Origin: Candidatus Neptunichlamydia sp.
GTDB taxonomy: Bacteria; Chlamydiota; Chlamydiia; Chlamydiales; Simkaniaceae
DNA: 64,000 bases
Assembly: GCA_965233865.1 (NCBI GenBank)
Contig: OZ247587.1
Coordinates: 1,344,001 to 1,408,000 of the forward strand
Direction: 5' to 3'
Shown: positions 10,175 through 28,199 of the stretch, piece by piece
Position numbering within the stretch: position 1 is the stretch's first letter
How the letters are laid out: each line of letters opens with the position of its first letter
Made by a program: the position numbers and the translations under genes
Notes under the pieces: model-generated
What the model saw: the letters and a program-made list of their open reading frames with translations, nothing else
The model's database searches: none
Told to the model about the DNA's origin: nothing

Positions 10175-11083
10175 ATGGCAGAGATTACCTACAGGGATCG
10201 AAGGACAGGAGAGCTAAGAAAAGAAAAAGTTTATGGTAAGTTTTTTCTTGAAGCTCTCTATGGTAGTAACCTCTTGGCAGAACTTTTTTCGATGCTTTTC
10301 CTCCCCATTATTAGTGCCATTCCATCTTTTTCAAACTTTTATGGAAGAAAGCAAAAATCAAAAAAAAGTCGGCTAAAGATCCTTCCGTTTATTCGAGATT
10401 TTAAAGTGGATGTTAGTGAATTTGCTGATTCTGTTGAAAGCTATGACTCTTTTAATGATTTTTTTATCAGAAAACTCAAACCTGAAGCGCGCCCCATTGA
10501 AAAAGGAGAGAAGGTTGCAGCCCTTCCAGCGGATGGGCGCTACCTTGTTTTTCAAGATGTTTCTAAGGTCGAGGGGTTCTACGTAAAAGATAAGAAGTTT
10601 GACCTGCGCAAGCTTGTTGATGATGAGCTTGTGTTTGAGCTTTATAAACAGGGAAGTATGATGATTGCGCGTTTGTGCCCAACTGACTACCATAGGTTTC
10701 ACTTTCCTTGCGCATGTATTCCGGGTAAATCAAAGTTGATTAAAGGCCCTCTTTTTTCAGTGAACCCTATTGCTCTTTGCAAGCACGTCTCGATCCTCAA
10801 TGAAAATAAAAGAGTGATGACACTGCTTGATGGAGGCTCTTTTGGGCAGATTGCGTACATTGAGGTGGGAGCCACTTGCGTGGGATCCATAAAGCAAACG
10901 TATCAGCCAAGCGATCTATGCGCGAAGGGATCGGAAAAGGGGTACTTTGAGTTCGGGGGATCTTGCTTGATCCTGTTGTTCCAACCGGAAAAAATCCAAT
11001 TTGAGCAAGACCTAATTGATGCTTCAAAAGAGCATGTCGAAACCTACGCTAAGATGGGAGAGTCTTTAGGGCATTGCAAATAG
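10175..11083 (+). CDS. psd: Phosphatidylserine decarboxylase proenzyme
   Basis: SFNDFFIRKLK, RLCPTDYHRFHFP, EVGATCVGSI, and the FEFGGS self-cleavage motif. Confidence 0.96.
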   Translation: MAEITYRDRRTGELRKEKVYGKFFLEALYGSNLLAELFSMLFLPIISAIPSFSNFYGRKQKSKKSRLKILPFIRDFKVDVSEFADSVESYDSFNDFFIRKLKPEARPIEKGEKVAALPADGRYLVFQDVSKVEGFYVKDKKFDLRKLVDDELVFELYKQGSMMIARLCPTDYHRFHFPCACIPGKSKLIKGPLFSVNPIALCKHVSILNENKRVMTLLDGGSFGQIAYIEVGATCVGSIKQTYQPSDLCAKGSEKGYFEFGGSCLILLFQPEKIQFEQDLIDASKEHVETYAKMGESLGHCK

Positions 11084-11678
11084 GGCACTCTTCAACGTGG
11101 TGTCCTTTGGCTGGGCAATACTGCCTTGCATAATAGATGATTTGGAGATGGAGTTTTTCCCAGGTTGTTTTTGGAAAAACTGTTTTAAGATCTTTTTCAG
11201 TTTGTTTCACATTTTTTCCTGAGCTGAGTCCCCAACGCTTCGCACATCGATGGATGTGGGTGTCAACAGGAAATGCAGGTTTTTTTAGGGCTTGAATGGT
11301 GACGACTGATGCGGTTTTATGGCCGACACCGGGAAGCGTTTCAAGTGCTTCTAATGTACGAGGAATCTTCCCCTTATATTCATCGATTAATATTTCAGAT
11401 AGCCTATGAATTGCACGTGCTTTTGTAGGAGCAAGTCCGCAAGGGCGAATAATGGATTCAATCTGTTTGACGGTAAGCTCAACCATTTCATACGGATCGC
11501 TAGCTTTTGCAAACAGTTTCGGGGTAATTTCGTTTACCTTTTTGTCGGTGCATTGTGCAGAAAGGAGAACGGCGATCAAGAGGGTGTAATGATCCTTGTG
11601 TTTAAGGGGAATGGGGGGGCTTGGAAAGAGTTTGTTAAGAATATAGAGGGCAATAGTCGCTCGTTTTTTTTTTATCAT
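11049..11678 (-). CDS. nth: Endonuclease III
   Basis: LLSAQCTD, HhH motif LPGVGHKTA, VDTHIHR, C-terminal Cys cluster. The ATG at 11678 overlaps the mnmE stop. Confidence 0.96.
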   Translation of the reverse strand: MIKKKRATIALYILNKLFPSPPIPLKHKDHYTLLIAVLLSAQCTDKKVNEITPKLFAKASDPYEMVELTVKQIESIIRPCGLAPTKARAIHRLSEILIDEYKGKIPRTLEALETLPGVGHKTASVVTIQALKKPAFPVDTHIHRCAKRWGLSSGKNVKQTEKDLKTVFPKTTWEKLHLQIIYYARQYCPAKGHHVEECPICNALKTLPS

Positions 11679-13036
11679 TTGCCTACACAAAACTTAGAAA
11701 AGATGGCACTGAGCACCTCTTCGGTAATATTCATTCCAATGATAGTTCCAAGTTCTTTTAATGCCAAGCGAATATCGGAGATGAGGAACTCGGGTGAGAG
11801 TTCTGTTTGTAGCCCGCTGAGGACAATTTTTAGTGCTTTAATGGATTCTCCAAGTGCTTGGTGGTGACGCTCACTTGAAATAATGAGTTCTTCTTTAGAA
11901 GGGGGGCTCCCTTGCCAAATTACTTTATGAATCTCTTGTTTGAGGAGTTCAATCCCTGTCCCTTCTTTGGCAGAAACGTCTACTTGGTGGGAATAAGGGA
12001 GACTGAGTTTATTTCCTTCGGCCAAATCAATCTTGTTCCAAATCACGATTGTTCTCTTCTCTGGAAGGGTCATCTCAATATGGGTAGGATGATTGTGATC
12101 ATAAACAAGAAGAATTAAATCGGCCTCCTGAGCAGCTTTTTCAGAGCGGCGCACACCTTCCTTTTCGATCGCTTCGTCGGTGATTCGAATCCCAGCTGTG
12201 TCAATTAGTCTAAAGTGGAGGCCGGCAAGTTGGATCTCTTCTTCCAAAATATCACGTGTTGTGCCGGGGATATTGGTGACAATCGCCCGTTCTTTCCCGC
12301 AAAGAGCATTCATCAAGGATGATTTCCCCACATTGGGAGCCCCAATCAGGCAAAGTGAAAATCCAGATTTTAGGGACTGCCCTTCATGGAACGTGTCATG
12401 TAAAACTGTCATACTTTCGACCAGCCCCTCTAACTGAGAACAAAGCTCTTCCTTCGAAGTAAATTCTAGCCCTTCTTCAGGAAAATCGACCCACGCTTCA
12501 AGGATTGCAGCGATTTCTATAAGCTCTTTTTGATAGATTGAAATTTTCTTGCAAAGCTTACCTTCTAAGTGGTTTTCAGCTGCTTGCCACGCAAGCTCAC
12601 TCTTAGAAGCAATGACCTGTTGCACTGCTTCTGCTTTTGTGAGGTCGATCTTTCCATTTTGAAAGGCTTTGAATGTAAATTCTCCGGGAAGAGCTGCTCG
12701 GGCTCCAGCTTTTAGCGTGGCATCTAAAACCTTGCGCGTAATCAGCGTTCCTCCGTGGCAATGAATTTCCACTGTATCTTCCCCTGTGTAGGAGCGGGGA
12801 TTTTTCATCACAATGGCAAGACCTTCATCAACAATCTCTCCATCCACCCCAATAATCTTTCCACAATGGACGGTGTGACTTTTATACTTATGAATCGGGC
12901 CAGAGAAAATCTGATCTGCAACCGCTAAGGCGTTATCGCCCGCAATGCGAATGACAGCAATGCCTCCTACTCCTGGTGGGGTTGCAACAGCGGCAACGGT
13001 TTGCCCCTTCTCATAACTGCGATGGTTAAATTCCAT
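11675..13036 (-). CDS. mnmE: tRNA modification GTPase MnmE/TrmE
   Basis: ATPPG.GGIAVIR, GAPNVGKSS, PGTTRD, DTAG, NKID, C-terminal FCVGK. Confidence 0.98.
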   Translation of the reverse strand: MEFNHRSYEKGQTVAAVATPPGVGGIAVIRIAGDNALAVADQIFSGPIHKYKSHTVHCGKIIGVDGEIVDEGLAIVMKNPRSYTGEDTVEIHCHGGTLITRKVLDATLKAGARAALPGEFTFKAFQNGKIDLTKAEAVQQVIASKSELAWQAAENHLEGKLCKKISIYQKELIEIAAILEAWVDFPEEGLEFTSKEELCSQLEGLVESMTVLHDTFHEGQSLKSGFSLCLIGAPNVGKSSLMNALCGKERAIVTNIPGTTRDILEEEIQLAGLHFRLIDTAGIRITDEAIEKEGVRRSEKAAQEADLILLVYDHNHPTHIEMTLPEKRTIVIWNKIDLAEGNKLSLPYSHQVDVSAKEGTGIELLKQEIHKVIWQGSPPSKEELIISSERHHQALGESIKALKIVLSGLQTELSPEFLISDIRLALKELGTIIGMNITEEVLSAIFSKFCVGK

Positions 13037-13366
13037 TTTCAAATTAATCCTCAATCTAAGGGAAAGGTTCTATCATAACAAAGGAGCAGCAAAATTTGAA
13101 TATAAATGAAGAATACCCCGCAGGAAGCTGCGTAGCATCTTTATAACCAGCACTGACGTTGTTGCATAAATTCCTCAGAAATCCAATGAATTGAAGAAAT
13201 ATCTTGTGTTAACCTGAGAGTGAATGAAAAGAAGGTGAATGATATAAATTCCTTAGCGGAACTTAGCTTGTAGGAGTAAAGTCATGGCTGTTTTACGTAA
13301 CCGATTCTCCCTTTATCATTTAACTTTTTTCTTTGCAATTTCTCAAAAATCCAAGGGGAATACTGC

Positions 13367-14155
13367 GTGATCAATACAGAACACTTTCCAACAATTGGTA
13401 TGTTTGCTGCTTTAAATTTGACCATAGGGCAAATTCATTTGTATGAAAAGGAAGAGTTGCCTAATTTTCAAGGTTTGAAGGTAGATTTTGGCCATTATGG
13501 GCTCTATTATGAATCTAATCATGGTCCAAATTGGTGGGGCTACTTCTTTGAGCCAATTTCTTTTGGAACCACAACTTTTTCTCCTTTCTATATGTCTTGG
13601 GAGGAGGGATGCGATGCTTTTCGTGCAAAAAGCGCTTTGCCTCGCGAGAAAGCTCTTGCCTTGGTCAAAAAATATATTCGAATTCAACAACATATTCGAA
13701 AAAAGGTAGATTGCTTTGTGAAAGATTATTTTCATGGAGCTTATACAATTGGTGTTCATTACTGAGGCACTGATAAGCACTCGGAAGCACCTCGCGTTGA
13801 TTACAATGTTGTCATTGCTGCCGTAAGGAATCAAATACCTAAAGAGAGGGTATATCAAATTTTTGTTGCTAGTGATGAAAATTCATTTGTAGAAACGATG
13901 CAACAAGAATTTCCTTCTCGAATCGTATCAAGGGATGTACACCGGACTACAGGAGCAGAGGGGGTTCATTTTTCTGAACAAATAGGTGGCTATCAACTAG
14001 GAGAAGAAGCTTTGATTGACTCACTCTTACTTTCAAAATGCAATCTCTTGATTCGTACGAGCTCAAATCTTAGCTTATGGTCTACCTATTTTCAACCTGA
14101 TATTCCTGTCATTTTATTGAGTGAACGTTATCAAAAATGTGCAGAACCCGAATAA
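13367..14155 (+). pseudogene. NodZ/GT23-like fucosyltransferase, disrupted
   Basis: ORFs 13367-13765 and 13898-14155 share a frame. Read through, they give IGVHY*GTDK...IFVASDE...EALIDSLLLSKCNLLIRTSSNLS, so the TGA at 13763 replaces the Arg of the VHxRGTDK motif. Confidence 0.8.
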
Positions 14156-14166
14156 ACAGGATCGGT

Positions 14167-15786
14167 TCATTGAATATGCAATTGATGATCCATCAAAGCG
14201 GCAATTTTCTTTTGATGGGTAATGACAAGGATGGCACGTTCTTTTGCAACAGTAAGGATGTTTTGAATGGTCGCAATTCCCGTTTCTTCATCTAAGCTAG
14301 CTGTTGGTTCATCAAGGATAAGAATAGGACTTTGTTTTAGAAGGACTCTTGCAATGGCTATTCTTTGCTTCTGTCCTCCAGAGAGTTTATCTCCTCTGTC
14401 TCCTACAATTGTATTTAGTCCTAAAGGAAGAGACTGAATAAAGGAATAACAATTAGCAACTTTAAGTGCTTTTAGAACGTCTTCTTCAGAGGCTGAAAGA
14501 TTTCCATACAGCATATTGTCTCTAATAGATCTGTGAAATAGAGAAGGGTTTTGGGGGACAACGGCAAACACATTTCTAACGTCTATCGGAGATAGGGTGT
14601 CGATTGAAGTTCCATCAATCTCTATACTTCCTGCTTTTGCTTGAATATGGGACAATAGAAGATGCATTAAGGTAGTTTTTCCAGAACCTGAAAGTCCTGC
14701 TAATAGCAAGGCTTTTCCCAGGGATTAAGGAAAGCGATAGGTCTTTAATTAAAGGAGTATCGTAATCAAATGACACCTTCTTTAGTGAGAGATACCCTTT
14801 AGGAGTAAAAAATGGTTTTTCGTTTTTTCCTCAGGAGTTCCTGAGAACACTACCTCGAGGTTTTCCTTTGTCCTCCCAAACTCTTCCTTAAAACGGATCA
14901 TCTCCATGCTTAAATACCATAGGAAGCTTGTGAGATTTAATAAAAGCATAATCACAAGAGTCATGGATCTTAAAGAGAGAGCTTCTTTTTTCCATTCTAC
15001 GTAGCTAAAGGTAAGGGTAGTTATGAGCGTTGCAAGACTAGATCCCCCTAAAACCCACCGCACTTTTTCTAGGTAATGTTGGGCTTTCTGGTTTGCCTTT
15101 AGCTCTTTACAAAGATATTTCTTTAAGTAGGTTGATTCATGGGTTTCTCTTGAGAAAGTTTTTACAGCAAAAATATTGAAAAAACTGTCCAAAATGCGTG
15201 CTTGAAGGTTTGAGCGAGCTTCTGCAGAGATTTTGGTTTTTTCTAATGAGTTAATTCCCATTTTCCATGTGACCCAAAGGTGAAAAATCATCCAAAAAAG
15301 AAAGACTCCCCTCAACTTGAGGCTTACAGATGTGATTAGAATTAGGGAAAAAAGGAGATGGGAAAGAATAGGAATAAAAGAAGAGAGGCAGATTGATAAA
15401 AGGGATTCACTTCCCAGAGCAGCCCCTTGGATTTTATCCGCTAGATTTCCCGAAAGGTGACTTTTGAAGAACGAGAGAGAATACCCTTTGACATGATCCG
15501 TAAGCTTTTCATAAAGAGATATCCGAATCGGAGACAAGGTGCGGACAACTAGTGCCCCCTGGATGCGCATACAAATTTCCATGATCCCCCAAAAAATAGC
15601 AATGAGAGCCACAGACTCAAGGATGACTTTAGGAAGGAGGTCTGAAGAGTGGGATGTGTCGATCATTTTTTTGACAAGATAAGGGGTCAAGATATCTCGT
15701 AGGGACAAAAAAAAACCCATGAAGGTAATTAAGAGCAGTCGAGCTTTAAATGGTTTGATTACCGATAAGATAGTAGATTTGAGCAT
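14167..15786 (-). pseudogene. ABC exporter (fused TMD + NBD), two frameshifts
   Basis: TMD ORF 14782-15786 and NBD ORF 14167-14709 (GLSGSGKTT, LSGGQKQR, ILDEPT). The linker GYLSLKKVSFDYDTPLIKDLSLSLIPGK lies in a different frame, implying shifts near 14818 and 14712. Confidence 0.85.
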
Positions 15787-15867
15787 CTGCGCAAGAGATT
15801 TGTTTTGAATAAGAACAGAATAATCATTCTTTCATTTTAAGTACAACCCATTCTATTTTCATATGGC

Positions 15868-16680
15868 ATGAGGTTTATATTTCTAATCACAGGAAAAAAA
15901 GCTCTCCCTTTTGCAAAAAGATGCATCGATTCAATTCTAGGGCAACAAGGAGATTACGCCTTTGATTGGCTCTATGTAGATGATGCTTCCGAGTATTCTG
16001 GGACTGAAAAAGAGTTCTTACTTTCGTTGATGGAAGAGAAAGTCCTATTTTTAACAAAACGTCATTATCAGATCGGTGCGATTCATCAAGGCATCAAAAA
16101 AATACAAGATTCTTATAGCATTGTCTGTTTGGTTGATGGAGATGACTATCTCTTGGGAGATGCATTGAATCATGTTGCAGAGGCTTATAAAAATCCTGAT
16201 GTTGCTATGACATACGGAAATGTTCTCCTAGACTTTCGCCCTTATCAAGATCCTATGTCCCAGTATTTTTCTGACAAAGGAACCATCAATACACAGTATT
16301 CTGATACAACCTGGAGAAGCCAAACATTTCGTGAGGATGGTTTTCGGTGTTTTCATCTTCGCACTTTTCGCCGGTGGCTTTGGGACCTTATTGATCCTAA
16401 GGTTTTTTTTCGAAGAGATGGAACTCCAATCCGCGCATCTGGTGATAGCGCTTTTGTGTATCCCATGTTAGAACTTCTAGGGGATCCAAAACATGTAGCA
16501 TTTATCGACACGCCTCTTTATATCTACCGTATTCATTCGGGGAATGTTCATAATCATGATAAGAAAAGTCAGACCGAAGACTTAGAATATATTCGCTTTG
16601 AACTCCCTTCCTATTCTCCAATGAATCGCTTGAAATTACAGGGGAGACTGAAGCAGAGTGAAGGTCTCATCAAAGGGTAA
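15868..16680 (+). CDS. Glycosyltransferase family 2 (GT-A)
   Basis: RCIDSILGQ, YVDDAS, LVDGDD (DxD), HLRTFR, LYIYRIH. Confidence 0.88.
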   Translation: MRFIFLITGKKALPFAKRCIDSILGQQGDYAFDWLYVDDASEYSGTEKEFLLSLMEEKVLFLTKRHYQIGAIHQGIKKIQDSYSIVCLVDGDDYLLGDALNHVAEAYKNPDVAMTYGNVLLDFRPYQDPMSQYFSDKGTINTQYSDTTWRSQTFREDGFRCFHLRTFRRWLWDLIDPKVFFRRDGTPIRASGDSAFVYPMLELLGDPKHVAFIDTPLYIYRIHSGNVHNHDKKSQTEDLEYIRFELPSYSPMNRLKLQGRLKQSEGLIKG

Positions 16681-16684
16681 AAGC

Positions 16685-18424
16685 ATGTGTGGGATTGGTG
16701 GATTTGTTGGTCAGGAATTTTCTAACAGAGAATTAGCCTCTACCATGCGTCATGTCTGCGAAAAGCTCTCTCTTAGGGGACCTGATGAAAGGGGAGTTTG
16801 CATCAAGCCAGGGGTTGCTCTGGCTTCTACACGCCTAGCAATTCGGGATCCTGAAAAAGGACAGCAACCCCTTCAAAAAGAGGGAATAGTTCTTGTTTTC
16901 AACGGAGAGATTTACAATACCGATGAGCTGCGCAATCGGTGTCAACAGACCTCTTGGAAAACTGAAAGTGACACAGAAGTTGTTTTAGAGATCTATCGAC
17001 ACTTCGGAGAGAACGGATTCCAAATGTTATCGGGGATGTTTTCGTTTGCGATTTGAGACGAAAAGAAAAAACACCTTTACCTTGTTCGAGATCGTTGGGG
17101 TGAGAAACCTCTATATTATACTGACACCAGAGAGAGAATTGCTTTTGCTTCTGAAATAGGAGGATTGATTCCGTGGAAGCATATAAATTGGGAATGGGAT
17201 GAAAAAGACTTATGGACTTTTTTAAAATATAGCTACATCCCTAGCCCCTTTTGTGGATGGAAAAATATTCAAAAGCTCCAACCTGGTTATTATTTGAGGT
17301 GGACACAAGGAGTGACAGAGCTAAGAAGATATTATTTTCCTAAGATTGATTTGAAGCAGCAATCCCCGAAGATTTTATTACAAGCCCTTCGAAACGCAGT
17401 GCGTCAATGCTCTGTATCAGATAAGCCAATTGGAGTGTTTTTAAGTGGAGGTTTGGATTCTTCTACAATTGTTGCACTACTAAAAGAAGTTAAGGAAACT
17501 TTTCCTGTATATTCTATCGATTGGAGGGAAAAAGATTATTCTGAAGGCTTTTACCATCAGGCTTTATGCCAAAGTCTCGATCTTCCTCAAAAAGTCGTTT
17601 ATTGTACGCCTGAGTTCATGGCTCAACACTTTGATCATATCGTTTCCTTGTATGGAGAACCTTTTGGTGATGAATCTATGATTCCTACTCATTGCATTGC
17701 TCGTCAGGCAAAAGAAGAGGTGGATGTTGTCTTAACGGGAGATGGTGCAGATGAATTTTTTCATGGGTATGAGCGCTATTTTTCTAATCATCCTACAGCA
17801 GACTATTCCGATATTTTTGCCCCTATTGATCGCTCTACGTGGGCGCTTATCTTTAAAAAAGAATTCCATTACCAAACGTTTCGATCTTCACCCGATTACT
17901 CGAAAGAATGGGGAATGGAAATGGATAACACACGAAGAGATCGTTCATTAATAGATATTCTTTCTTATTTACCAGACGATATCTTAATGAAAGTAGACCG
18001 TGCTACTATGGGAGTAGGGCTTGAAGCTAGAGCCCCCTTTCTTTTAACAGAGGTTACTGATATCGCTCTTAGTTCTTCTCTGGATCAGTTACAAGAGTTT
18101 TCAAAAGCACGTGGAAAAAAACTTCTAAGAGAAGCAGTAAGCAAGATTATTCCAGAAAGCATTCTTCTACGTAAGAAGCAGGGGTTCGGAGTTCCACTAG
18201 GTAAATGGTTTCAAGATGATCTCCATCTCTGGATGAAAGAACGTCTAATGTACGGGTCGTTAAATCAACTGGGATGGTTTTCAAAAAAAGGGTTAGAGGT
18301 TCTTTGTCAATTCCCTCAAAGATACTCACGTGCTCTTTTTAATCTTTTAGTCTTAGAGTGCTGGATGTGCAGAAATAATCATTTGCAAAATAATCTTTAT
18401 GAGTCCAACATTTCTATGTATTGA
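16685..18424 (+). pseudogene. asnB: AsnB-like glutamine-dependent amidotransferase with an in-frame nonsense codon
   Basis: Ntn start MCGIGG, RGPD, FNGEIYN, then GMFSFAI*DEK (TGA at 17054 where Trp is conserved), RDRWGEKPLYY, LSGGLDSS, TGDGADE, KVDRATM, RKKQGF, all in one frame. Confidence 0.9.
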
Positions 18425-18442
18425 AACCTAAAGGAAATCTCT

Positions 18443-19369
18443 ATGAAAATATTGATTACTGGCTCTGAGGGACTGATCGGGTCTTCCCTGGCTATAGCTC
18501 TTGATCGTTTAGGAATTACCGCTCTCGGGCTTGATAATAAATTAGAGCCGCACCATCCCTGCTATGGGGATATTTTGAATTATGAGCAAGTTTCCGAATC
18601 TATGAATGGCGTTGAAGGGGTTGTTCATCTTGCTGCTGTCTCTCGTGTCATATTTGGAGAAAAAAACCCCAAATTGTGTTGGGATACGAATGTCGAAGGG
18701 ACAAAACATATTCTAGAAGCTGCCCTAGCCTCTCCCAAAAAACCTTGGGTTCTTTATGCGAGTAGTCGAGAGGTCTATGGACAGCAAGAAGAACTTCCTG
18801 TTAAAGAAACAGCTCCCCTTATCCCAGTCAACATTTATGGAGAATCAAAAATAGCTGCGGAGCAAGCTGTAGAAAACGCAGTTAAAGAAGGGACCAAAGC
18901 CTCTGTTGTTCGTTTTTCAAATGTTTTTGGAAGTGTTAACGATCATCATGATCGAGTCATCCCAGCCTTTTGCTTAGCTGCAGCCAATGGGACAAGAATA
19001 AGGATTGATGGAAAAGATAATCTCTTTGATTTCACATATATCGATGACGTAGTACAAGGAATTTTATCCTTTGTGTATCACTTAACTCAGAGAGATGAGC
19101 CTCTTCCTCCCATCCACTTTACTATGGGTCAAGCCACAAGTCTGGGAGAAGCTGCCTTTTATGCACAGCAAGCCAGTAGGCATCCAATAGAAATCATTGA
19201 AGCTCCTTCAAGAAGCTATGATGTAGCCCGTTTTTATGGAGACTCTTCCCGTGCAGAAACCCTTTTGGGTTGGAGACCTTGTGTGGGTGTTCAAGAGGGG
19301 ATACGACGTCTTATTCATCAATACCAACTTGTTTCTCAGGTCGCTCAGATGGAATATGCACACATTTGA
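18443..19369 (+). CDS. NAD-dependent nucleotide-sugar epimerase/dehydratase (extended SDR)
   Basis: ITGSEGLIG, HLAAVS, ASSREVYG, YGESK, RFSNVFG, FDFTYIDD. Confidence 0.92.
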   Translation: MKILITGSEGLIGSSLAIALDRLGITALGLDNKLEPHHPCYGDILNYEQVSESMNGVEGVVHLAAVSRVIFGEKNPKLCWDTNVEGTKHILEAALASPKKPWVLYASSREVYGQQEELPVKETAPLIPVNIYGESKIAAEQAVENAVKEGTKASVVRFSNVFGSVNDHHDRVIPAFCLAAANGTRIRIDGKDNLFDFTYIDDVVQGILSFVYHLTQRDEPLPPIHFTMGQATSLGEAAFYAQQASRHPIEIIEAPSRSYDVARFYGDSSRAETLLGWRPCVGVQEGIRRLIHQYQLVSQVAQMEYAHI

Positions 19370-19994
19370 CCATCTTTTTTTAAGGCATGCGGATCGCCCA
19401 TTGTTTAAGCTAAACTCTTGGGGGCATAACGTTTCCATTACCCACAAAGGAGAACAAGCTTCTCAATCAATGGGGCAGGAGCTAAGGTTCAAAAAATCTA
19501 GCTATTATCTTTGGAGCAGTCCAATCAAAAGGTGTTTGCAAACAGCTGAAGCCATCTGCAGCGGATTGGACTCCAATAAAGATATCAGACAAAGTTCTCT
19601 TCTGGGAGCCCCTGGATTTTTTATTCAAAACCCAGAACAAGCCGCTATTTTCTTTAAAGATTACCGGCTTCCTGAATTGGTTGATCTTTATCTTCAAGAG
19701 AAAAGTCTCCCAGGTTTTTTTTCTTTCAAAGAGGGGGGGGAAAGGATGCTCTTGGCTCTAATAGAGAAAAATGAGGTTCCTTCTATCTGGGTGACCCATG
19801 ATATCTGTGTCGCAATTTTAGCATGTTTTTTGTTTAAGAGGGTATCTTGTGAGGGATTTATTCCTGACTTTTTAGAAGGAATCGTTATTAAAAAAGATGG
19901 CGATAGCTGGTTCGCATCCTATAAAGGTTGCAGTACAAGAATTGAAGAGACTTTATTTAAGGGAAAGGTAGTCTCCAGCCTAAATCCCTCCTGA
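19356..19994 (+). CDS. Histidine phosphatase family protein
   Basis: LRHA, SSPIKRCLQTA, VTHD. Start set at ATG 19356, overlapping the epimerase end. Confidence 0.85.
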   Translation: MHTFDHLFLRHADRPLFKLNSWGHNVSITHKGEQASQSMGQELRFKKSSYYLWSSPIKRCLQTAEAICSGLDSNKDIRQSSLLGAPGFFIQNPEQAAIFFKDYRLPELVDLYLQEKSLPGFFSFKEGGERMLLALIEKNEVPSIWVTHDICVAILACFLFKRVSCEGFIPDFLEGIVIKKDGDSWFASYKGCSTRIEETLFKGKVVSSLNPS

Positions 19995-21598
19995 GAGTAG
20001 AGATTTTTAAACTCCTCTAATGTCCTTTCTTTCCCACCTGTCATGACCCACATATTGAGGTTGAGTAAAGCCCCGCTTCCCGTGTTTTTATCTAAAAGAT
20101 TTTCAATGACATAAAGGCGCCCAGTATCTTGAATGATCTTTCGCACTTTCTTTAGGATGTGAAGGGCCTTGTCATCGTCCCAGTCATGCAATACTCTTGA
20201 GAGAATGACCCCATCGAATGAGCATTTTGGCCATTTTTCAAAAAAGTCTAAGGGAACAAGGGTTAAACGAGGTTGGGGTGTGCACTTTTCTAAAACTGAA
20301 GGGAGATCTAAAACTGTTCCTTCTATGTGGGGATATTTCTTGAGAAGGATTTTTATAAAAGTCCCTGTCGATCCTCCAATATCCGCTATCGATTGATGGA
20401 TCGTACAATCGATCACCTCCCCAAAAGTTTGATAATCATTGTGTGCATAATGAGAAAGTGCCTGATGATAAAGAGTTTCTTTTTGGGGATGATTTTTAAT
20501 GTAATCAAACCAGTTTTGGTGATACAAACTCTCGAAAGAAGGTTTTTCTTGTTGCAGGGCTGTTGCGACTTTTTTCCAAGCCTGGAGATGCTCCTCCATC
20601 CAAAGGGTTTGGGCATGAGTAAGAGAAAACGGGTGCTGAGATGTGAGAAATTTTCCTTTCTCTGATAGTTGCCATAGATTTTGAGTTTTCTCCACATACC
20701 CTATTTCCATTAAAGCAAGGAGAATTTTTTCAATCATTAAGGGCTTTAAGGTTGTTTTATGAGAGAGGGTGTTAAGTGTTCCAGGAAGAGCTTCGAAAAT
20801 CTGAAGTCTTTTTGCTCCTTCCAAGGCGTACAACTTCCAGTAAGAAACTAAATCCCCTGAGACTTTGTGAAAAGCGTCTTTTCTTTTCGAGTAAAGTTCT
20901 TGAATCACATTTCCTTCTTCATCGATCAGCAGAAGAGATCCTTCCTCATTTTCCACCCTTGCGTGTCCATTATAAAACGGTTCAATCATGGCATACCTGG
21001 TTGAATAAAGAGGATTCCCTTTGTGGTCCACATGAAACCAGCCTAATTCATTTTTTGCTCTTGCAAACCCTTTATGAAAAATATCTAAATCTAAAAATCC
21101 TTTCGGATGAACTTTATTTCCACTGGTATCGATATGATAATGGAGTCCATCTGCAGCTTGAACCACGGCAACACCATCATGAAAGTCTCCAGTATAGGAG
21201 TAGGTTGTTAAATAAAGAGTTTCCCCCTCTGTATTGATATGAAAATAGTTCCTATTGAAGTCTTTAACAGTGCAGAGGTTTTCTTGAAAGTTTCCACACC
21301 ATGCATAACGTTTTTTATAAAGAGGGGATCCATCTGAAAGAATATGAAACCAGCCTTTTTTGTCGACAACCGCTGCACGATCACAATAATAACCAAATGT
21401 TTTGTGGTAGCGTTTGGAATATAGGGGGTCTCCAAAAAGATTGATATGATAGGCGCCCGAAAGATCTCTTACAGGCGCAAGTCCAGGGGAGTGAAATTTG
21501 AGAATATGAAGAAAGCGATGAGAATATACGGGTTTGTTTTCAAAAGTATGGTGGGTCTCATCTTGAGAAACTTCATATTTTTGCCAGTTCGGCTTCAT
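19919..21598 (-). CDS. WG/KWG-repeat protein fused to a class II SAM-dependent O-methyltransferase
   Basis: About six ~35-aa repeats (FHI...G..LY..RY....F..G.A.V), then a dimerisation helix region, DIGGSTG, LDLP, DFF, SRVLHDWDD, GGKERT. Confidence 0.88.
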   Translation of the reverse strand: MKPNWQKYEVSQDETHHTFENKPVYSHRFLHILKFHSPGLAPVRDLSGAYHINLFGDPLYSKRYHKTFGYYCDRAAVVDKKGWFHILSDGSPLYKKRYAWCGNFQENLCTVKDFNRNYFHINTEGETLYLTTYSYTGDFHDGVAVVQAADGLHYHIDTSGNKVHPKGFLDLDIFHKGFARAKNELGWFHVDHKGNPLYSTRYAMIEPFYNGHARVENEEGSLLLIDEEGNVIQELYSKRKDAFHKVSGDLVSYWKLYALEGAKRLQIFEALPGTLNTLSHKTTLKPLMIEKILLALMEIGYVEKTQNLWQLSEKGKFLTSQHPFSLTHAQTLWMEEHLQAWKKVATALQQEKPSFESLYHQNWFDYIKNHPQKETLYHQALSHYAHNDYQTFGEVIDCTIHQSIADIGGSTGTFIKILLKKYPHIEGTVLDLPSVLEKCTPQPRLTLVPLDFFEKWPKCSFDGVILSRVLHDWDDDKALHILKKVRKIIQDTGRLYVIENLLDKNTGSGALLNLNMWVMTGGKERTLEEFKNLYSQEGFRLETTFPLNKVSSILVLQPL

Positions 21599-22646
21599 TG
21601 CGAGGTGTTCCTAGGTTGTTTATTTTTTTACGCATGTTACATCTTTTACACACTTCATTTTGAAGGTAATTTTTTTGAAGGTTATTATAAGATCTATTCG
21701 TCCAAACATCTTCGATGGATTGGTTTTCGAGGGTTCCAAAATCTCCTAGCTTTCTTCGGTCTTTGTCCGGAGCGCAGCAGGGGTTAAACCGCCCTTCTGC
21801 TGAAACCCAGGCCTCTTGGCCTAGGAAAGGACAAACTCCTTCAGAAAGGAGCTCTTCTATTGCACATCCATCCAGTTCATAAATGTTTTCAAGGAAGACC
21901 TTTTCTCCATCTGGGAGTCGGTATTTTTCTGCAGCTTCTTGGGCAAGACGTGCAATACCATTCCATTTTTGAATTGCTTGAGGGTCTCTTCGCATTGACT
22001 CATTTTCCATTTCTTTCGTAAAAACCCATAAATGGTGCCCTTTAACCCGGTTCACTCCAAGAGAAGCTGCAAGTTTTACAACTTCTGGAATTTCTTCAGC
22101 TCCTGTCTCAGTAAAGGTGAGTTGAAATGTGACTCGACAAAAGTTGCCTTCGGTTCGCGCAATGGTATCTCGCACTTGAATAAAGTCTTTGACGTTTTGT
22201 ACGCGTTGCTCAAAATTGGAGCCAATCATGATAAGCTCAGAAGTTTTTTTAGTCGCTCCATTCCAAGAGATTTTGACGTCCGAGCCAATAGGAACAATCT
22301 TTTCAGCCCATTTCTTTGCTCCATATTTTGGAAAAGTTCCGTTTGTAGTAAGGTTCATTTTGACATCAAATTCATGACACAAATCGATAATAGATTCAAA
22401 ATGACGATACAGCAGCGGTTCCCCCATTGTTGATGGGATAATTTCTCGGAGGGGAGTATCCTTTGCCTCTTCTAATATCTTCCGCATCAATTGAATATCC
22501 ATCCGCCGCCTAGGCCTCCCTTCCGCTTTGCGCTGACTTTGGCAAGTACTGTAGATCGAATGCTCTTCACACATGACACAGCGCAAGTTGCAGTCGTCAG
22601 GGTTGGTGTCAAATGTGATCCGCCAGGGACCGGGTCTTTGGGTCAT
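21573..22646 (-). CDS. Radical SAM enzyme with C-terminal SPASM/twitch domain
   Basis: CNLRCVMC (CX3CX2C), GEPL, TTNG, C-terminal CPF...PCC...CKRC. AGGAGG Shine-Dalgarno just upstream of the ATG. Confidence 0.92.
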   Translation of the reverse strand: MTQRPGPWRITFDTNPDDCNLRCVMCEEHSIYSTCQSQRKAEGRPRRRMDIQLMRKILEEAKDTPLREIIPSTMGEPLLYRHFESIIDLCHEFDVKMNLTTNGTFPKYGAKKWAEKIVPIGSDVKISWNGATKKTSELIMIGSNFEQRVQNVKDFIQVRDTIARTEGNFCRVTFQLTFTETGAEEIPEVVKLAASLGVNRVKGHHLWVFTKEMENESMRRDPQAIQKWNGIARLAQEAAEKYRLPDGEKVFLENIYELDGCAIEELLSEGVCPFLGQEAWVSAEGRFNPCCAPDKDRRKLGDFGTLENQSIEDVWTNRSYNNLQKNYLQNEVCKRCNMRKKINNLGTPRNEAELAKI

Positions 22647-23955
22647 AAGCCCTCCTATTCTCTAGAGATTGTTGATAGAGTGAAACAACTTGTTCAGCAT
22701 GTTCTTCAATGTTTGGAATATGACCGGTTTCTGATTGGATATAACCTTTAGATTGAATGCGTGACAAGAGTTGAGGGGCCTTTATAAGGCGATTCATTTG
22801 CTCTGCAAGTTTTCTAGGGGAACGATGTTCAAACAATAAACCATTGACATCATGGTGGATATATTCTCGCATTCCTCCGTAACCTGCTGTAATCACAGCA
22901 ACCTTGGATTCAAGGGCTTCATGGATAACAAGAGGGGAGTTCTCTCCCCAAATCGAGGGAACAACAATGGCATCAATGTGGTTAAAAACATCCGACACAA
23001 TTTCTGTATTGGAATATCCTCCCATCCAATGGATCTTTTCCTGTAGAGATGTGGCCATTTTCGAAACATATGCTTTTAGGGAATTTGTGAAAGGTTGAAT
23101 AGGGGAACCCCAAATTTTTAGCTCTGCTTGGGGATGGTTCAGTTTATGGAAGGCTTGAAGTAAATGAAGAATGCCTTTTGCTTGTTTGTGAGTTCCAATA
23201 TATCCAAAAGTGAAAGGTGTATTCTTCTTTCTTTTTCTTCCATGGAGCTTTTTTCGATGAAATCCATAGTCTAGGTAAACCATCTTTGAAGAAGGAATGG
23301 GAAGTCCATCCAAGAAACGGTCCATCAAGTAGCGAGAAGGAGCGTGGAACAGATCGATGTGTGGTAGCAGATCGTTTCGAACATGATCCATGCGACGTTG
23401 AACCCATCCCGTCCAATAAGTAATGTCTTCTAGGTTGTCTTGAGAGCTAAAGTACCTCCAGTAACAGTTGCGGGCACACTTTTCATTTTCTTGAGATTCA
23501 CAAACGGGGTAGAGGTCTTCTGCCTTGGAGTTAATAGCTTGCAGAAACTGTCCCCTTGGGCACATAAGCCAAAAATCATGCAGAGTGAAGACTATAGGAA
23601 TCCCTAGCTGATATGCTTCATTGACAATAGAGGTAGATAGGTGATTAAGATGGCCAATATGGATAATATCTGGGTTGAATTCAGTTGCGACCTTTTGAAA
23701 TGCTTTATCAACAGCTGCATGTCGGTACCCATCTTTACTGTGAGCCATGTTAATCATGGCGATTTTTATTTCTGGACAGAGGGGATCAGAGCTCCATTCA
23801 ACAGAATATTCTTGTGCATAGGCATTTTCTTGCCTTGTAAAAACAAGGATCTCATGCCCTTGATTCACCAGCTCATTGCAAAGCGTTTGAGAGTAGACTT
23901 CTGATCCTGCAGAATAGAGAGGTGGATACCCATGTATAACTTTTAAGATCTTCAA
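22609..23955 (-). CDS. Glycosyltransferase family 4 (GT-B)
   Basis: HGYPPLYSAGSE, PDIIHIGH, TLHDFWLMC, KGI, PSIWGENSPLVIHEA, NGLLF. TTG start. Confidence 0.92.
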   Translation of the reverse strand: MKILKVIHGYPPLYSAGSEVYSQTLCNELVNQGHEILVFTRQENAYAQEYSVEWSSDPLCPEIKIAMINMAHSKDGYRHAAVDKAFQKVATEFNPDIIHIGHLNHLSTSIVNEAYQLGIPIVFTLHDFWLMCPRGQFLQAINSKAEDLYPVCESQENEKCARNCYWRYFSSQDNLEDITYWTGWVQRRMDHVRNDLLPHIDLFHAPSRYLMDRFLDGLPIPSSKMVYLDYGFHRKKLHGRKRKKNTPFTFGYIGTHKQAKGILHLLQAFHKLNHPQAELKIWGSPIQPFTNSLKAYVSKMATSLQEKIHWMGGYSNTEIVSDVFNHIDAIVVPSIWGENSPLVIHEALESKVAVITAGYGGMREYIHHDVNGLLFEHRSPRKLAEQMNRLIKAPQLLSRIQSKGYIQSETGHIPNIEEHAEQVVSLYQQSLENRRAYDPKTRSLADHI

Positions 23956-24062
23956 AATGCTTCCCTGATAGGAAATCCTTAGGTGAAGGGTGCTTGAGGG
24001 TCAAATTTATATCAATAGAAAATATTAGAATATTCTATAGTTAAGTTTGTGTGATGGAGGTT

Positions 24063-24665
24063 TTATATTCCAGAAAGGGCGGCCCGAATGAGTGTGCTAA
24101 GATCGGAAGGAGTCTCGCTTGCCAGGGCTTTTTTAAGTGCTTGTTGCGCCTGAAGAGAATTATATCCAAGGTTCATGAGCGCAGAGAGAGCGTCATTCAC
24201 CATTTGATCTTCTTCGGTAATTTCATGCTTTGAAGTGTGAGGAAGGGGAGTTTTTTTGAATCCTTTGAGGACTTTATCCCGGAGCTCTACAATCAGACGT
24301 TCAGCTGTTTTTTTTCCAATACCTGGAATTTTTGAAAGGATCGTCGTATTCGCAGTCGTGATGGCGGATTCGAGAGAAGAACTATCGAGATGTCCAATAA
24401 GGGCAAGGGCAGTTTTAGGTCCAATGCCAGATACGGTGCTAATTTTTTCAAAAAGGTCGCGCTCTTCAAAGGTAAGAAAACCAAAGTTTTTGTAAGAATC
24501 TTCACGGATCACTGAGGAGATATAAAAGAGAGCATCTTTCCCGATAAGAGGCGCCCCGGAAAAAGCACTGAGGGGGGTGTAAAGCAGATAGCCCACGCCG
24601 TTGACATCTACAACAGCATTGTGGGGAGTGATTGAGACAAGAGTTCCTTTGATATATTCAAACAT
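24063..24665 (-). CDS. ruvA: Holliday junction branch migration protein RuvA
   Basis: MFEYIKG, VNGVGY, VSGIGPK, IPGIGKKTAERLIVEL, ALMNLGY. Confidence 0.98.
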   Translation of the reverse strand: MFEYIKGTLVSITPHNAVVDVNGVGYLLYTPLSAFSGAPLIGKDALFYISSVIREDSYKNFGFLTFEERDLFEKISTVSGIGPKTALALIGHLDSSSLESAITTANTTILSKIPGIGKKTAERLIVELRDKVLKGFKKTPLPHTSKHEITEEDQMVNDALSALMNLGYNSLQAQQALKKALASETPSDLSTLIRAALSGI

Positions 24666-25161
24666 AGACGCCTATGGGTTTAATGTGATTGGCATGAGTA
24701 ATCGCAAGGGCGAGGGCATCGGCAGCATCTTCAGGGGTGGGGATTTCCTTAAGATTTAGAAGCAGTTGCATCATTTTTTGGATTTGTTTCTTGGTTGCTG
24801 ATCCAGATCCTACAACAGCAAGTTTTGCCTTTGTTGGGGCATATTCGAAGATAGGGATTTTGCGCTTGGTGGCAGCAACGAGGGCAACCGCTTTTGCCAT
24901 CCCAAGTTTTAGAGCACTTTGAACATTGCAGCCGACAAACTGAGTTTCAATAGAAACAGCTTCAATAGGATAGGAATCAAGGATATGCTCGATCCCTTCA
25001 TGAATGATGCCGTATCTTTCGTGGAGGGAGAGTTTGAGCGAGGGACGGATACATCCAAAATCAAGGGGGGTAAATGAGCGGAGATCTGTTTCGATAATTC
25101 CATATCCAGTGATACGGGTTCCTGGATCAATCCCTAAAATAATATGTTTTTTTCGACTCAT
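24658..25161 (-). CDS. ruvC: Crossover junction endodeoxyribonuclease RuvC
   Basis: ILGIDPG, TGYGII, EYAPTKAK, DAADALALA. Start trimmed to MSRKKH. Confidence 0.97.
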   Translation of the reverse strand: MSRKKHIILGIDPGTRITGYGIIETDLRSFTPLDFGCIRPSLKLSLHERYGIIHEGIEHILDSYPIEAVSIETQFVGCNVQSALKLGMAKAVALVAATKRKIPIFEYAPTKAKLAVVGSGSATKKQIQKMMQLLLNLKEIPTPEDAADALALAITHANHIKPIGVYV

Positions 25162-25207
25162 ATTTTTCATTATGGAACGAAAAGGATTTTCTGTTAATCT
25201 TAAAGCA

Positions 25208-26272
25208 ATGAAAAGTCTAGAAAACTTAGATCCTAGCTCCATTATTGTTCGGATGCCTAATTGGTTGGGTGACTTGGTGATGGCAACCTCTGTTTTAGCA
25301 GATTTACGGGAGAGATATCCTCATGCTGAAATTACAGTAATGTGTCAGGCCAATGTCGCTCCCTTGCTAGAAAATGACCCTGTTGTAGACGAGGTTTTCT
25401 GTGTGAGTCGTGGAGAGAGCTTTATCCGTCGGATTGGAGGGCGAAACATTGTTGCGAAACTGAAGAGCGGAACATATGATCTTGGAATTTTATTGACCAA
25501 TTCATTTTCATCAGCCTGGAGATTTTGGCAAGGGAGTGTCAAAAACACACTGGGATACTGCGCAGATGGTCGAAGCTTTTTAATGACGCATCCGGTTTCT
25601 TTCTCTGAGAAGAAAAAAGAGCAACACCTAGTGATTACTTATAAGGAGCTCCTAAAGCCTCTCGGAATTCCAGTTTCCGAGACAAAGCCCAGATTGGTTG
25701 TAACGGATCAGGAGACTAAAGAGGCGTGGGAGATTGTCAAACGGTTTGACATTGCCCCAGATTGCAATATTATTGGAGTGAATCCCGGAGCTGCTTACGG
25801 CACTGCAAAATGTTGGCTTCCTGAGCGATTTACGGAAGTGACTAAAAATATTATTGAGGGAGATCCCAAAAATGTTGTTCTCTTTTTTGGTGACCGCTCT
25901 CATAAGGAATTGATCGGAAAGATTTGCGTGGGACTTTCAAAGCGCGCAATAAACATGTCAGGTCAAACTAGCTTGAGGGAGCTGCTAGCACTTATAAAAA
26001 TTTGTAGTGTCTTTTTAACAAATGACAGCGGACCCATGCACATTGCGGATAGTTTAGATGTCCCCCTTGTCGCACTGTTTGGCTCAACAAGCCCAGTGGT
26101 GACGGGGCCTTACAGACAAAGTCAAAACATTATCCAGAAGAAAGTTCCTTGTTCCCCGTGTTTTAAACGGGTTTGTCCGATTGATTTTCCCTGCATGAAG
26201 GATATTGGAGTGGGTGAAGTAACAGCAGCAGTTCTTTCTAAACTTAAGCAAAGCCTCGCAGGGTGTATGTGA
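25208..26272 (+). CDS. waaF: Lipopolysaccharide heptosyltransferase II-like (GT9)
   Basis: PNWLGDLVM, NSFSSA, NPGAAYGTAKCW, NDSGPMH, ALFGST, CSPCFKRVCP. Start trimmed to ATG 25208. Confidence 0.88.
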   Translation: MKSLENLDPSSIIVRMPNWLGDLVMATSVLADLRERYPHAEITVMCQANVAPLLENDPVVDEVFCVSRGESFIRRIGGRNIVAKLKSGTYDLGILLTNSFSSAWRFWQGSVKNTLGYCADGRSFLMTHPVSFSEKKKEQHLVITYKELLKPLGIPVSETKPRLVVTDQETKEAWEIVKRFDIAPDCNIIGVNPGAAYGTAKCWLPERFTEVTKNIIEGDPKNVVLFFGDRSHKELIGKICVGLSKRAINMSGQTSLRELLALIKICSVFLTNDSGPMHIADSLDVPLVALFGSTSPVVTGPYRQSQNIIQKKVPCSPCFKRVCPIDFPCMKDIGVGEVTAAVLSKLKQSLAGCM

Positions 26273-27174
26273 AGAAGTTGATTGATGCAATGCGCCCAAA
26301 CCCCTTTGATAAACTTCTAAAAAAAATGGTAGAAGAAGAAAAAGGGCGTTTCCTCGTCATTTGGAGTCGAGGGCTAGGGGATATCCCTTTAGGTCTTTAT
26401 GCTTTGGTCTATCGTATCCGCAGCTATGTTCCCAACGCATCGATTACCTTTATGACGCGCAGAGACTTAGCTGAGGCGTTCACTATGCTTGAGGGTATTC
26501 AGGTGCTTATTGGGGAGTCATGGGAAAGAGGAAAACCCTTTGATATCGAAGAAACTTTAAAACAGCATTCTTTAAGCTCTAACATGTTTGATGTCATTCT
26601 CGAAAAACCTGATCCTACAAAGTGGCTAAAGTGGCAAATAGGAAACCTTATTCCAAGGCTGAAATGGCAAGAGAAGTGGGACAGTCTTGTTGACAAGTAT
26701 GAGCTCGATCTAAACGAGACTTACATTGGATGTCATGTTCAGACGGAGACGGGTGCGTATTATGGCTACGAAAAAAACTGGGATCTCCCTTCATGGCGGA
26801 ATCTTTTTAAGAAGATTCAGGAAAAAAGTAAAGGAAAAATTCTTCTGTTTGGAATGGAAAGAGAGCCCGCTTTTTTGATGGATAATGTCATTGATCTTCG
26901 TGGTGAAACAACCCTCTTTGAAATGCTATCTTTGATTAAAAATCGATGCCGTTGCCTTGTGGCTCCGGACTCTGGTGTTCTCTCTATTGCCTATTATGTC
27001 GATGCAAGTTACCCAGTTCGGGTTGTCTCTCTGTGGGCAGACCCTAGGCAAGGAGTTCTTAGACAAAAGGTAGACTCACCAAACCCTCAACTTGAACATA
27101 TCCCCCTCCATGGTAAAAATGATAATGTGGCTAATATTTCAGTTGATACTGTCTATGACTCTTTATTCGGGTGA
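26263..27174 (+). CDS. Second GT9 (heptosyltransferase-like) glycosyltransferase
   Basis: RGLGDI, KNW, DLRGETTL, APDSG. Confidence 0.8.
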   Translation: MYVKKLIDAMRPNPFDKLLKKMVEEEKGRFLVIWSRGLGDIPLGLYALVYRIRSYVPNASITFMTRRDLAEAFTMLEGIQVLIGESWERGKPFDIEETLKQHSLSSNMFDVILEKPDPTKWLKWQIGNLIPRLKWQEKWDSLVDKYELDLNETYIGCHVQTETGAYYGYEKNWDLPSWRNLFKKIQEKSKGKILLFGMEREPAFLMDNVIDLRGETTLFEMLSLIKNRCRCLVAPDSGVLSIAYYVDASYPVRVVSLWADPRQGVLRQKVDSPNPQLEHIPLHGKNDNVANISVDTVYDSLFG

Positions 27175-27178
27175 GCTG

Positions 27179-28156: not shown

Positions 28157-28176
28157 AACTTGCCATCATGTATAAT
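28148..28176 (+). promoter_or_regulatory. Possible sigma66/sigma70 promoter for gpsA
   Basis: ATGACG-17 bp-TATAAT, 23 bp upstream of the gpsA start. Confidence 0.35.
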
Positions 28177-28199
28177 TAATAAAAAAAAATATTTAGGAA

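Follow-up and report, generated by a model that had tools for sequence, protein, structure and literature searches.

The window considered here is a 64,000-nucleotide stretch of a Simkaniaceae chromosome (Candidatus Neptunichlamydia sp., phylum Chlamydiota; contig OZ247587.1 of assembly GCA_965233865.1, positions 1,344,001 to 1,408,000), and it carries an accessory island of nine genes (13367-23955) within an insert of ~11.0 kb between the core genes mnmE and ruvA. Gene identities were assigned by Pfam and NCBIfam profile searches, and the features are listed in Table 1. Six of the nine genes are open–those coding for a family 2 glycosyltransferase (GT2), a nucleotide-sugar epimerase, a histidine phosphatase, a WG-repeat O-methyltransferase (WG-OMT), a radical SAM enzyme, and a family 4 glycosyltransferase (GT4)–and three, coding for a NodZ-like transferase, an ATP-binding cassette (ABC) exporter, and an AsnB-type amidotransferase, are interrupted. 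The GT4 and radical SAM genes overlap by 38 nt and the radical SAM and WG-OMT genes by 26 nt. A preliminary description made from the sequence alone had read a nine-gene island at this site, and Pfam places the genes where it had drawn them; its families hold, with the corrections that the NodZ-like, ABC and AsnB genes are pseudogenes with in-frame stops and that the phosphatase most likely starts at 19356 and not at 19236 (alignment of 23 sequences). In the five same-genus genomes checked, all without a WG-OMT gene, ruvC, ruvA, mnmE and nth are contiguous, with 70 bp between the end of ruvA and mnmE in G003, G005, G006 and G011 and 612 bp in G010 (G numbers denote compared genomes and L numbers surveyed loci), and the window therefore carries an insert.

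Table 1. Features of the island and of its surroundings in the window.
Feature	Coordinates	Strand	Remarks
Inserted accessory island	13055..24062	.	Between mnmE (11675-13054, -) and ruvA (24063-24665, -)
NodZ-like (GT23-type) fucosyltransferase, pseudogene	13367..14155	+	In-frame TGA 13763-13765; start uncertain
ABC exporter, fused transmembrane (TMD) and nucleotide-binding (NBD) domains, pseudogene	14167..15786	-	NBD 14167-14709, TMD 14782-15786; Pfam ABC_membrane, ABC_tran
GT2 glycosyltransferase, 270 aa, open	15868..16680	+	Pfam Glycos_transf_2, E 5.8e-10
AsnB-type glutamine amidotransferase, pseudogene	16685..18424	+	GATase_6/7 piece 16658-17056; Asn_synthase piece 17165-18424, E 7e-71
Extended short-chain dehydrogenase/reductase (SDR) nucleotide-sugar epimerase/dehydratase, open	18443..19369	+	UC2 homologue; Pfam Epimerase, E 3e-41
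Histidine phosphatase, branch 1, open	19356..19994	+	Pfam His_Phos_1, E 3.9e-6; open reading frame opens at 19236
WG-repeat and COMT-type O-methyltransferase, open	19919..21598	-	UC4 homologue; Pfam WG_beta_rep, Methyltransf_2, E 9.8e-36
Radical SAM enzyme with SPASM/twitch-type C-terminal domain, open	21573..22646	-	C-terminal half of UC3; Pfam Radical_SAM, SPASM above cut-off
GT4 retaining glycosyltransferase, open	22609..23955	-	TTG start; N-terminal half of UC3; Pfam Glycos_transf_1, Glyco_transf_4
Two GT9 heptosyltransferase-like genes	25004-26272, 26263-27174		Pfam
UDPGP-family uridylyltransferase	27092-28156		Pfam
Second SDR epimerase	31009-31974		Pfam
Wza-like exporter	31915-33033		Pfam
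943-aa protein	33030-35861		No Pfam hit
Wzy_C/O-antigen-ligase-like gene	35816-37243		Pfam

The central genes of the island are related to the Undecim Cluster, a conserved and highly expressed gene set that is duplicated in an obligate Wolbachia strain. The cluster was defined in Wolbachia prophage WO (WD0611-WD0621) by Bordenstein & Bordenstein 2022 (PMC9203015), who predict, purely on annotation, roles in exopolysaccharide/lipopolysaccharide (EPS/LPS), methylation, antibiotic export and metabolites. Expression of its proteins is reported by Baldridge et al. 2015 (PMC4701759), who also list homologues of WD0612-0614, in syntenic arrangement, from Desulfovibrio hydrothermalis, Haliangium, Capnocytophaga and Saprospira. 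PMC9111745 labels a gene array of R. buchneri 'aminoglycoside antibiotic synthesis/resistance', and a 2025 preprint (10.1101/2025.04.16.649125) describes the Undecim functions as still unknown. Our literature search found no paper joining the Undecim Cluster with chlamydia, and none combining WG repeat, radical SAM, O-methyltransferase and glycosyltransferase.

The relationship is specific. Searched with tblastn against phage records, the WG-OMT has one match, a Wolbachia phage WO, and it aligns with UC4 of phage WO at 36.2% identity over 98% of the query (E 1e-97); among plasmids it matches three Arsenophonus plasmids of ~20 kb (38-39%) and two Rickettsia plasmids (35-36%), and Undecim copies are carried by the Rickettsia plasmids pREIS2, pREIP and pRhe as well as by Arsenophonus plasmids. 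GT4 and the radical SAM enzyme correspond to successive parts of UC3 (residues 1-431 at 46% identity, E 1e-140, and residues 435-778 at 54%, E 3e-135, respectively), and likewise to positions 1-406 (E 1e-122) and 406-706 (E 1.3e-72) of phrog_21308. The epimerase matches UC2 at 41% identity over 299 residues (E 6e-80). The ABC gene is a pseudogene here; its TMD shares 22% identity with UC6 (E 7e-12), and its intact relatives 28%. The Undecim kinship supposed in the preliminary description thus stands for GT4, the radical SAM enzyme, the epimerase and WG-OMT (36-54% identity), but comes down to generic similarity for the exporter.

The genes of the phage WO cluster are ordered as GlmU-like protein, epimerase, GT1/moaA-family fusion, WG-OMT, PhyH-like protein, ABC protein, two threonine aldolases, G3P-type transporter, UDP-glucose dehydrogenase and DMT permease. 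The island shares with it the homologues of UC2, UC3 and UC4 and the order GT4, radical SAM, O-methyltransferase, and both are patchy and mobile. They differ in that GT4 and radical SAM are fused in UC3 but are separate, overlapping genes in the window, and in that the Undecim Cluster of Wolbachia lies in prophage WO, in its eukaryotic association module (EAM), whereas the island is not phage-associated. The accessory enzymes also differ, as had been expected: the island adds the histidine phosphatase, GT2, AsnB and the NodZ-like gene, and has no GlmU-like gene, PhyH dioxygenase, pair of threonine aldolases, or GlpT-type and DMT transporters. Relatives of the UC5 PhyH and UC7/UC8 aldolases, absent from the island, were also not found in the window's own genome when the PhyH and aldolase proteins of locus L080 (discussed below) were used as queries; a Pfam PhyH search of this genome is uninformative, the control genomes having been equally silent, and a Beta_elim_lyase search gave weak generic pyridoxal-phosphate (PLP) enzyme hits only (best 27.2 bits). 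Judged by homology and gene order, the island is a chlamydial variant of the Undecim core UC2-UC4, and so belongs to a module already described, if uncharacterised, and is not the undescribed kind of system that had been suspected.

The core extends well beyond endosymbionts. A search of the protein collection yields 1620 WG-OMT homologues at E ≤ 0.001, and in a survey of one genome per species (185,579 species) relatives of it are encoded by 562 of 591 candidate stretches. The counts that follow are from the best 80 of these 562 loci, which belong to Chlamydiota, Dehalococcoidia/SAR202, Hormoscilla, Archangium/Cystobacter and other myxobacteria, Desulfobacterales, and unclassified Pseudomonadota. 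With presence scored by tblastn, using the proteins of the island and of Undecim as queries and requiring E < 1e-8 over 50% or more of the query, 77 loci have the radical SAM enzyme, 75 have GT4, 62 the phosphatase and 57 the epimerase; UDP-glucose dehydrogenase (UGDH) is found in 20, GT2 and AsnB in 9 each, and the ABC TMD in 4. The radical SAM and GT4 genes are almost always directly upstream of the WG-OMT gene and co-directional with it, and the co-occurrence in other genomes that the Undecim proposal implied is thus found, with the core genes clustered in 75-77 of the 80 loci alongside the specific matches to UC2-UC4. Several of the misses are contigs ending within the flank, although L051 and L088 have full flanks and contain the WG-OMT alone.

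Clustering of open reading frames (ORFs) of at least 100 aa from 84 loci (the 80 best, the window, and L006-L008) gives a similar picture. GT4 is present in 63 loci and in a further 11 as a GT4-radical SAM fusion (in myxobacteria, Hormoscilla, Wolbachia and Rickettsia), the radical SAM enzyme in 61 (+11), and the epimerase and the phosphatase in 59 each, the phosphatase being absent from all three loci of endosymbionts or phage; UGDH is present in 21, an extra radical SAM protein of 300 aa in 8, and an ABC gene in 6. Beyond GT4, radical SAM, epimerase and phosphatase, nothing else is broadly conserved among the ORFs of this size in the 84 loci. The window has all five core genes in the same tight order, but the branches of the family differ in what they add. 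In the chlamydial branch this is a GT2-AsnB pair, the two genes each occurring, adjacently, in 10 of 15 chlamydial loci and in none of the 69 others, and five chlamydial loci also have a hexapeptide acyltransferase; in the Dehalococcoidia branch the core is instead paired with UGDH (20 loci) and sometimes with a viperin. Chlamydial gene orders vary as well. In L013 and L018 there is a single co-directional string GT2-AsnB-epimerase-phosphatase-GT4-radical SAM-WG-OMT, in L016 GT2-AsnB is on the opposite strand, upstream of the co-directional remainder, and in the window, L009 and L010 the stretch from GT2 to the phosphatase is inverted, so that it converges on GT4, radical SAM and WG-OMT. The Undecim-type set is itself found in L080, a Pseudomonadota metagenome-assembled genome, with two PhyH genes, two aldolases and an ABC gene.

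The same core, corresponding to UC2-UC4, is thus spread over Chlamydiota, Dehalococcoidia/SAR202, myxobacteria, Hormoscilla, Desulfobacterales, and the replicons of insect and tick endosymbionts, and Undecim is one branch of a much larger bacterial module family. A tree of 83 WG-OMT rows (built in quick mode and midpoint-rooted for drawing only, with many rows skewed in composition) has the 15 chlamydial rows as one clade (SH-aLRT 97), in which the window and two other Simkaniaceae loci, L009 and L010, form a group (support 100), while Wolbachia and Rickettsia form a long branch (2.05) outside everything else and Arsenophonus pairs with L080. Because of this separate clade, with the Wolbachia and Rickettsia branch outside it, the chlamydial island is not a recent derivative of the Wolbachia cluster, and the module as a whole is no speciality of endosymbionts.

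Within Chlamydiota the module is patchily distributed. A WG-OMT gene (E ≤ 1e-60) is present in 19 of 400 chlamydial genomes, representing 12 of 212 genera, and in only 2 of the 14 other genomes of the window's genus. Of the same genus, G002 is 76% identical to the window in mnmE and 73% in WG-OMT, and G014 is 78% identical in mnmE and 47% in WG-OMT; G021, of another genus, has 72-76% mnmE identity and 78% WG-OMT identity. As measured by these identities, island relationships conflict with host relationships. The best matches of the G014 GT4 and WG-OMT are Parachlamydiales and Rhabdochlamydiaceae loci, and its island (L091, G014:C32:1-20000) is a rearranged and much more divergent copy, organized as GT4-radical SAM, ABC, GT2-AsnB-epimerase-phosphatase, and WG-OMT, suggesting that the genus acquired the island a second time, independently. 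The L009 island is flanked by UvrB and a 1241-aa protein on one side and by pyruvate dehydrogenase E1 on the other, unlike that of the window. From the conflict in identities, the G014 matches and the different L009 flanks, it follows that the module has moved within Chlamydiota more than once.

The island of the window is also decaying. All three split genes stay in frame across their breaks, and all three are open in L009, the closest relative. In AsnB, a TGA (17054-17056) replaces a conserved tryptophan ('FAI*DEKK' against 'FAIWDEKK' in L009), and in the NodZ-like gene a TGA at 13763 replaces an arginine ('GVHY*GTDK' against 'GVHYRGTDK' in the intact L009 orthologue). The ABC gene has three in-frame TAA codons (first bases 14784, 14751 and 14727), each replacing a leucine of the orthologues and falling in a heavily diverged stretch; the orthologues in L009 and L010 are intact, at 539 aa. 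The NodZ-like fragments at 13367-14155 have no Pfam hit themselves, but the intact orthologue (L009:17458-18807(-)) matches Pfam NodZ (PF05830; E 4.3e-9, 36.1 bits against a cut-off of 28.3). A reading of TGA as tryptophan in AsnB was rejected, since AsnB itself ends in TGA, as do 13 of the 31 long ORFs of the window. Over 13300-18500, contigs of four public sequencing runs from two studies nowhere disagree with the window; all five stop codons are covered by a single contig of run X1, with a depth of about 1559, and X4, from the second study, shows the AsnB stop at a depth of 2. Runs X1-X3 may represent the sample from which the genome was assembled. AsnB, the NodZ-like transferase and the ABC exporter are nonsense pseudogenes in this genome. 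With AsnB and the ABC gene broken, amidation and export cannot work here; only the core and GT2 are predicted to be able to act still, and an elaborated, exported form would no longer be made.

The open genes retain the residues expected for activity. The radical SAM enzyme has ten invariant cysteines among 36 sequences, of which C19, C23 and C26 form the CX3CX2C motif and the others are C90, C170, C272, C290, C291, C333 and C336; with this motif and the C-terminal auxiliary-cluster cysteines it is classed as a SPASM/twitch protein. The spacing C272-x17-C290 ... C333-x2-C336 resembles what we take to be the single auxiliary cluster of BtrN. The radical SAM core begins at residue 9-19 and CX3CX2C at residue 19, and an N-terminal domain is therefore lacking. 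A sequence search against solved structures gave no useful match (best E 0.29). In structural comparison the model matches BlsE (Z 23.7; 301 residues aligned, rmsd 3.2), SuiB (23.4; aligned only from SuiB residue 92), SkfB (22.4), DesII (20.9), PqqE (20.6), anSME (20.2), MoaA (20.1), viperins (about 19) and BtrN (17.4), rows within 1 Z unit being ties. The model is consistent with a compact SPASM/twitch enzyme, and the ranking says no more than that. Sugar and sugar-nucleoside enzymes such as BlsE, DesII and BtrN share 12-18% identity with it, it has the additional invariant C90, C170 and C291, and peptide maturases score equally well.

In GT4, E338 and E346 of the E-x7-E motif are invariant in 34 sequences within a GT-B fold, as are C132, C152, C160 and C164. 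These four cysteines belong to an insert within the first, N-terminal domain of the GT-B fold, which is kept from Chlamydiae to Wolbachia and may be a metal site. The GT4 model has a pLDDT of 88.8, with low confidence (63-69) in the four-cysteine insert, and Foldseek places it nearest to MshA, archaeal glycogen synthase, BshA and sucrose-phosphate synthase (SPS), with PglA, PimA and others close behind. MshA and SPS use phosphorylated acceptors, which are then acted on by dedicated phosphatases. The pairing of a retaining GT4 with a dedicated phosphatase in the island is thus reminiscent of MshA/MshA2 and of sucrose-phosphate synthase/phosphatase, although identities are 16-18%, the GT4 here has the conserved four-cysteine insert, and the phosphatase here is of the histidine-phosphatase superfamily. 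In that phosphatase, whose probable start is M41 of the ORF, R50 and H51 ('LRHA'), R54, R99 and H188-D189 are conserved in 23 sequences, giving the RHG-type motif and the second histidine.

The O-methyltransferase domain belongs to the COMT/ASMT small-molecule class (PF00891; 93 solved relatives, best 6c5b, E 4e-34), with D406 and G412 of the SAM-binding site and H471, D472 and W473 invariant in 14 sequences. Its WG domain returned only 'WG repeat-containing protein' clusters in the ESM Atlas, at 0.88 and thus under the 0.9 level, and a predicted complex of the radical SAM enzyme with WG-OMT scored 0.00, which counts neither way. The epimerase has GxxGxxG at residues 7-13 and Y132xxxK136; among solved structures it is closest to 3vps (E 2e-25) and to GalE-type enzymes, and much the same holds for the SDR of Dehalococcoidia. 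Segments resembling transmembrane (TM) helices are present only in the ABC protein and in none of the enzymes, GT2 included, so that all island enzymes look soluble.

From these features we infer that the core is probably a five-gene cytoplasmic sugar-tailoring module making a radical-tailored, O-methylated, small soluble glycoside. In such a pathway the SDR would prepare a UDP-sugar, possibly a uronic acid, GT4 would move the sugar onto a small phosphorylated acceptor, the histidine phosphatase would strip the phosphate, the radical SAM enzyme would perform a radical oxidation, decarboxylation or dehydration on the sugar, and the O-methyltransferase would methylate a hydroxyl. In Chlamydiae, GT2 would add a second sugar and AsnB would turn a carboxylate into an amide, and in Simkaniaceae a further sugar would come from the NodZ-like enzyme, with the ABC protein exporting the product. 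A uronic acid is hinted at by the UGDH gene that recurs beside the module, by a gene of that family elsewhere in the window's genome, by the AsnB partner, and by the resemblance to BlsE. A small product is in keeping with a radical SAM enzyme having no N-terminal domain, and with a GT4 nearest to MshA, BshA and SPS, and a soluble pathway with enzymes free of TM-like segments and an island in which Pfam finds no Wzx/Wzy-type or priming-transferase family.

Several observations pull the other way. The three glycosyltransferases and the MsbA/PglK-like ABC protein of Simkaniaceae would fit oligosaccharide assembly too, LPS or polysaccharide genes (GT9, Wza-like and Wzy_C) lie nearby, and the endosymbiont versions have no phosphatase, so that the phospho-acceptor step cannot be universal. 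As to decay, independent support for the stops is confined to the AsnB stop, in X4 at its depth of 2.

One alternative product is a surface glycan, in which a unit of LPS, lipooligosaccharide (LOS), capsule or exopolysaccharide would be built or decorated by the island enzymes and flipped or exported by the ABC protein. AsnB-type amidotransferases amidate uronic acids in O-antigens, and here one accompanies GT4, GT2 and the NodZ-like transferase; the NBD of the exporter matches MsbA and PglK models, the envelope-type genes adjoin the island, and PMC9203015 proposes EPS/LPS roles for UC1-UC3 and UC10. These envelope-glycan genes (25004-37243) lie, however, past ruvA/ruvC and outside the insert, and Pfam finds no priming phosphoglycosyltransferase, flippase or polymerase within it. 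The core mostly travels without a transporter, an ABC gene being in 6 of the 84 loci, and the enzymes are without TM-like segments. Moreover, Wolbachia lacks LPS and Dehalococcoidia lack a typical envelope, and both nonetheless keep the module. We therefore regard a surface glycan as unlikely.

A bioactive nucleoside- or aminoglycoside-like compound, with antibiotic or antiviral action (the 'AGAB' reading of the Rickettsia plasmid copy), would be a special case of the small soluble glycoside proposed above, and is improbable. The label given to the R. buchneri array in PMC9111745 is of this kind. Some loci have suggestive neighbours: a true pVip gene (PADLOC, E 3.5e-84) is directly upstream of GT4 and in the same orientation in L065 (1647-2555, +), and a pVip-like gene is present in 8 of the 84 loci (7 Dehalococcoidia, 1 Desulfobacterales); beside the module are an LmuA-like NB-ARC/TPR protein (Lamassu-like, E 6.6e-89) in L061 (11671-14988), from the cultured myxobacterium Archangium gephyra, and BREX BrxC/D with an Lhr-type helicase in L085 (8830-12306); and the L080 copy adjoins a phage-type integrase (17623-19056). 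Such defence and pVip neighbours are nonetheless a minority of loci and may reflect life in genomic islands, and the window radical SAM enzyme is only weakly similar to pVip (E 3.5e-8, core only), with structural ranks that tie. The best solved relative of the epimerase by sequence, 3vps, is presumably TunA of tunicamycin biosynthesis. None of the nine island genes matches an aminotransferase or cyclitol-synthase family in Pfam or NCBIfam, and a classical aminoglycoside pathway is thus not present. A RiPP-like system (ribosomally synthesised and post-translationally modified peptide), in which the SPASM enzyme would cross-link a peptide that GT4 glycosylates and the O-methyltransferase methylates, is highly improbable, as the radical SAM enzyme has no N-terminal recognition (RRE) domain (its CX3CX2C is at residue 19, and SuiB aligns from residue 92), the overlapping or abutting genes leave no space for a conserved precursor gene, and no extra ORF cluster is conserved in the 84 loci, among ORFs of at least 100 aa.

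The small soluble glycoside can be taken one step further, though only tentatively and with rather more doubt than belief. The core may make a novel and widespread compound, perhaps nucleoside- or uronic-acid-based, which is carried and repeatedly exchanged by eukaryote-associated bacteria for host interaction or for antiviral or antibacterial defence, with GT2-AsnB yielding a second, amidated form; the carriers would be chlamydiae, Wolbachia, Rickettsia, Arsenophonus, sponge-associated SAR202 and Hormoscilla.

The boundaries of the insert are inconspicuous. The GC content is slightly lower inside (0.376-0.418 over 13000-18500, against 0.429-0.462 over 10500-12999), there is no tRNA near the island, and the two boundary spacers share no direct repeat of at least 9 nt and have a single inverted match, of 11 nt. 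The Pfam hits near the island include no integrase or transposase family, and those of the window no phage family; the flanks are mnmE/nth and ruvA/ruvC. Scans of 12900-24200 gave 23 promoter-like sites (23.5 expected) and 16 terminator-like sites (11.2 ± 3.2 expected), both at chance level, and neither scan marks operon boundaries. Elsewhere in the window, an IspD cytidylyltransferase is fused to a short-chain dehydrogenase domain (434 aa; 47397-48701) and adjoins an ATP:guanido phosphotransferase (arginine-kinase-like) gene (46339-47400), and a UPF0137 family protein (56054-56791, E 8e-75) adjoins a ParA/MinD-like ATPase (55278-56078).

The enzymatic heart of Undecim is thus a five-gene module at 562 places across very different bacteria, with a separate, monophyletic chlamydial branch, and it occurs in cultured myxobacteria such as Archangium gephyra (L061). 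Because the core spans such diverse bacteria, cultured myxobacteria included, the question of the Undecim product can be put to test outside unculturable endosymbionts, and the value of the island is in showing the Undecim core as a pathway found broadly in bacteria and open to study in culturable hosts. For chlamydial biology, it is a horizontally mobile accessory island and a patchy accessory trait, exchanged within the phylum and here caught in partial decay.

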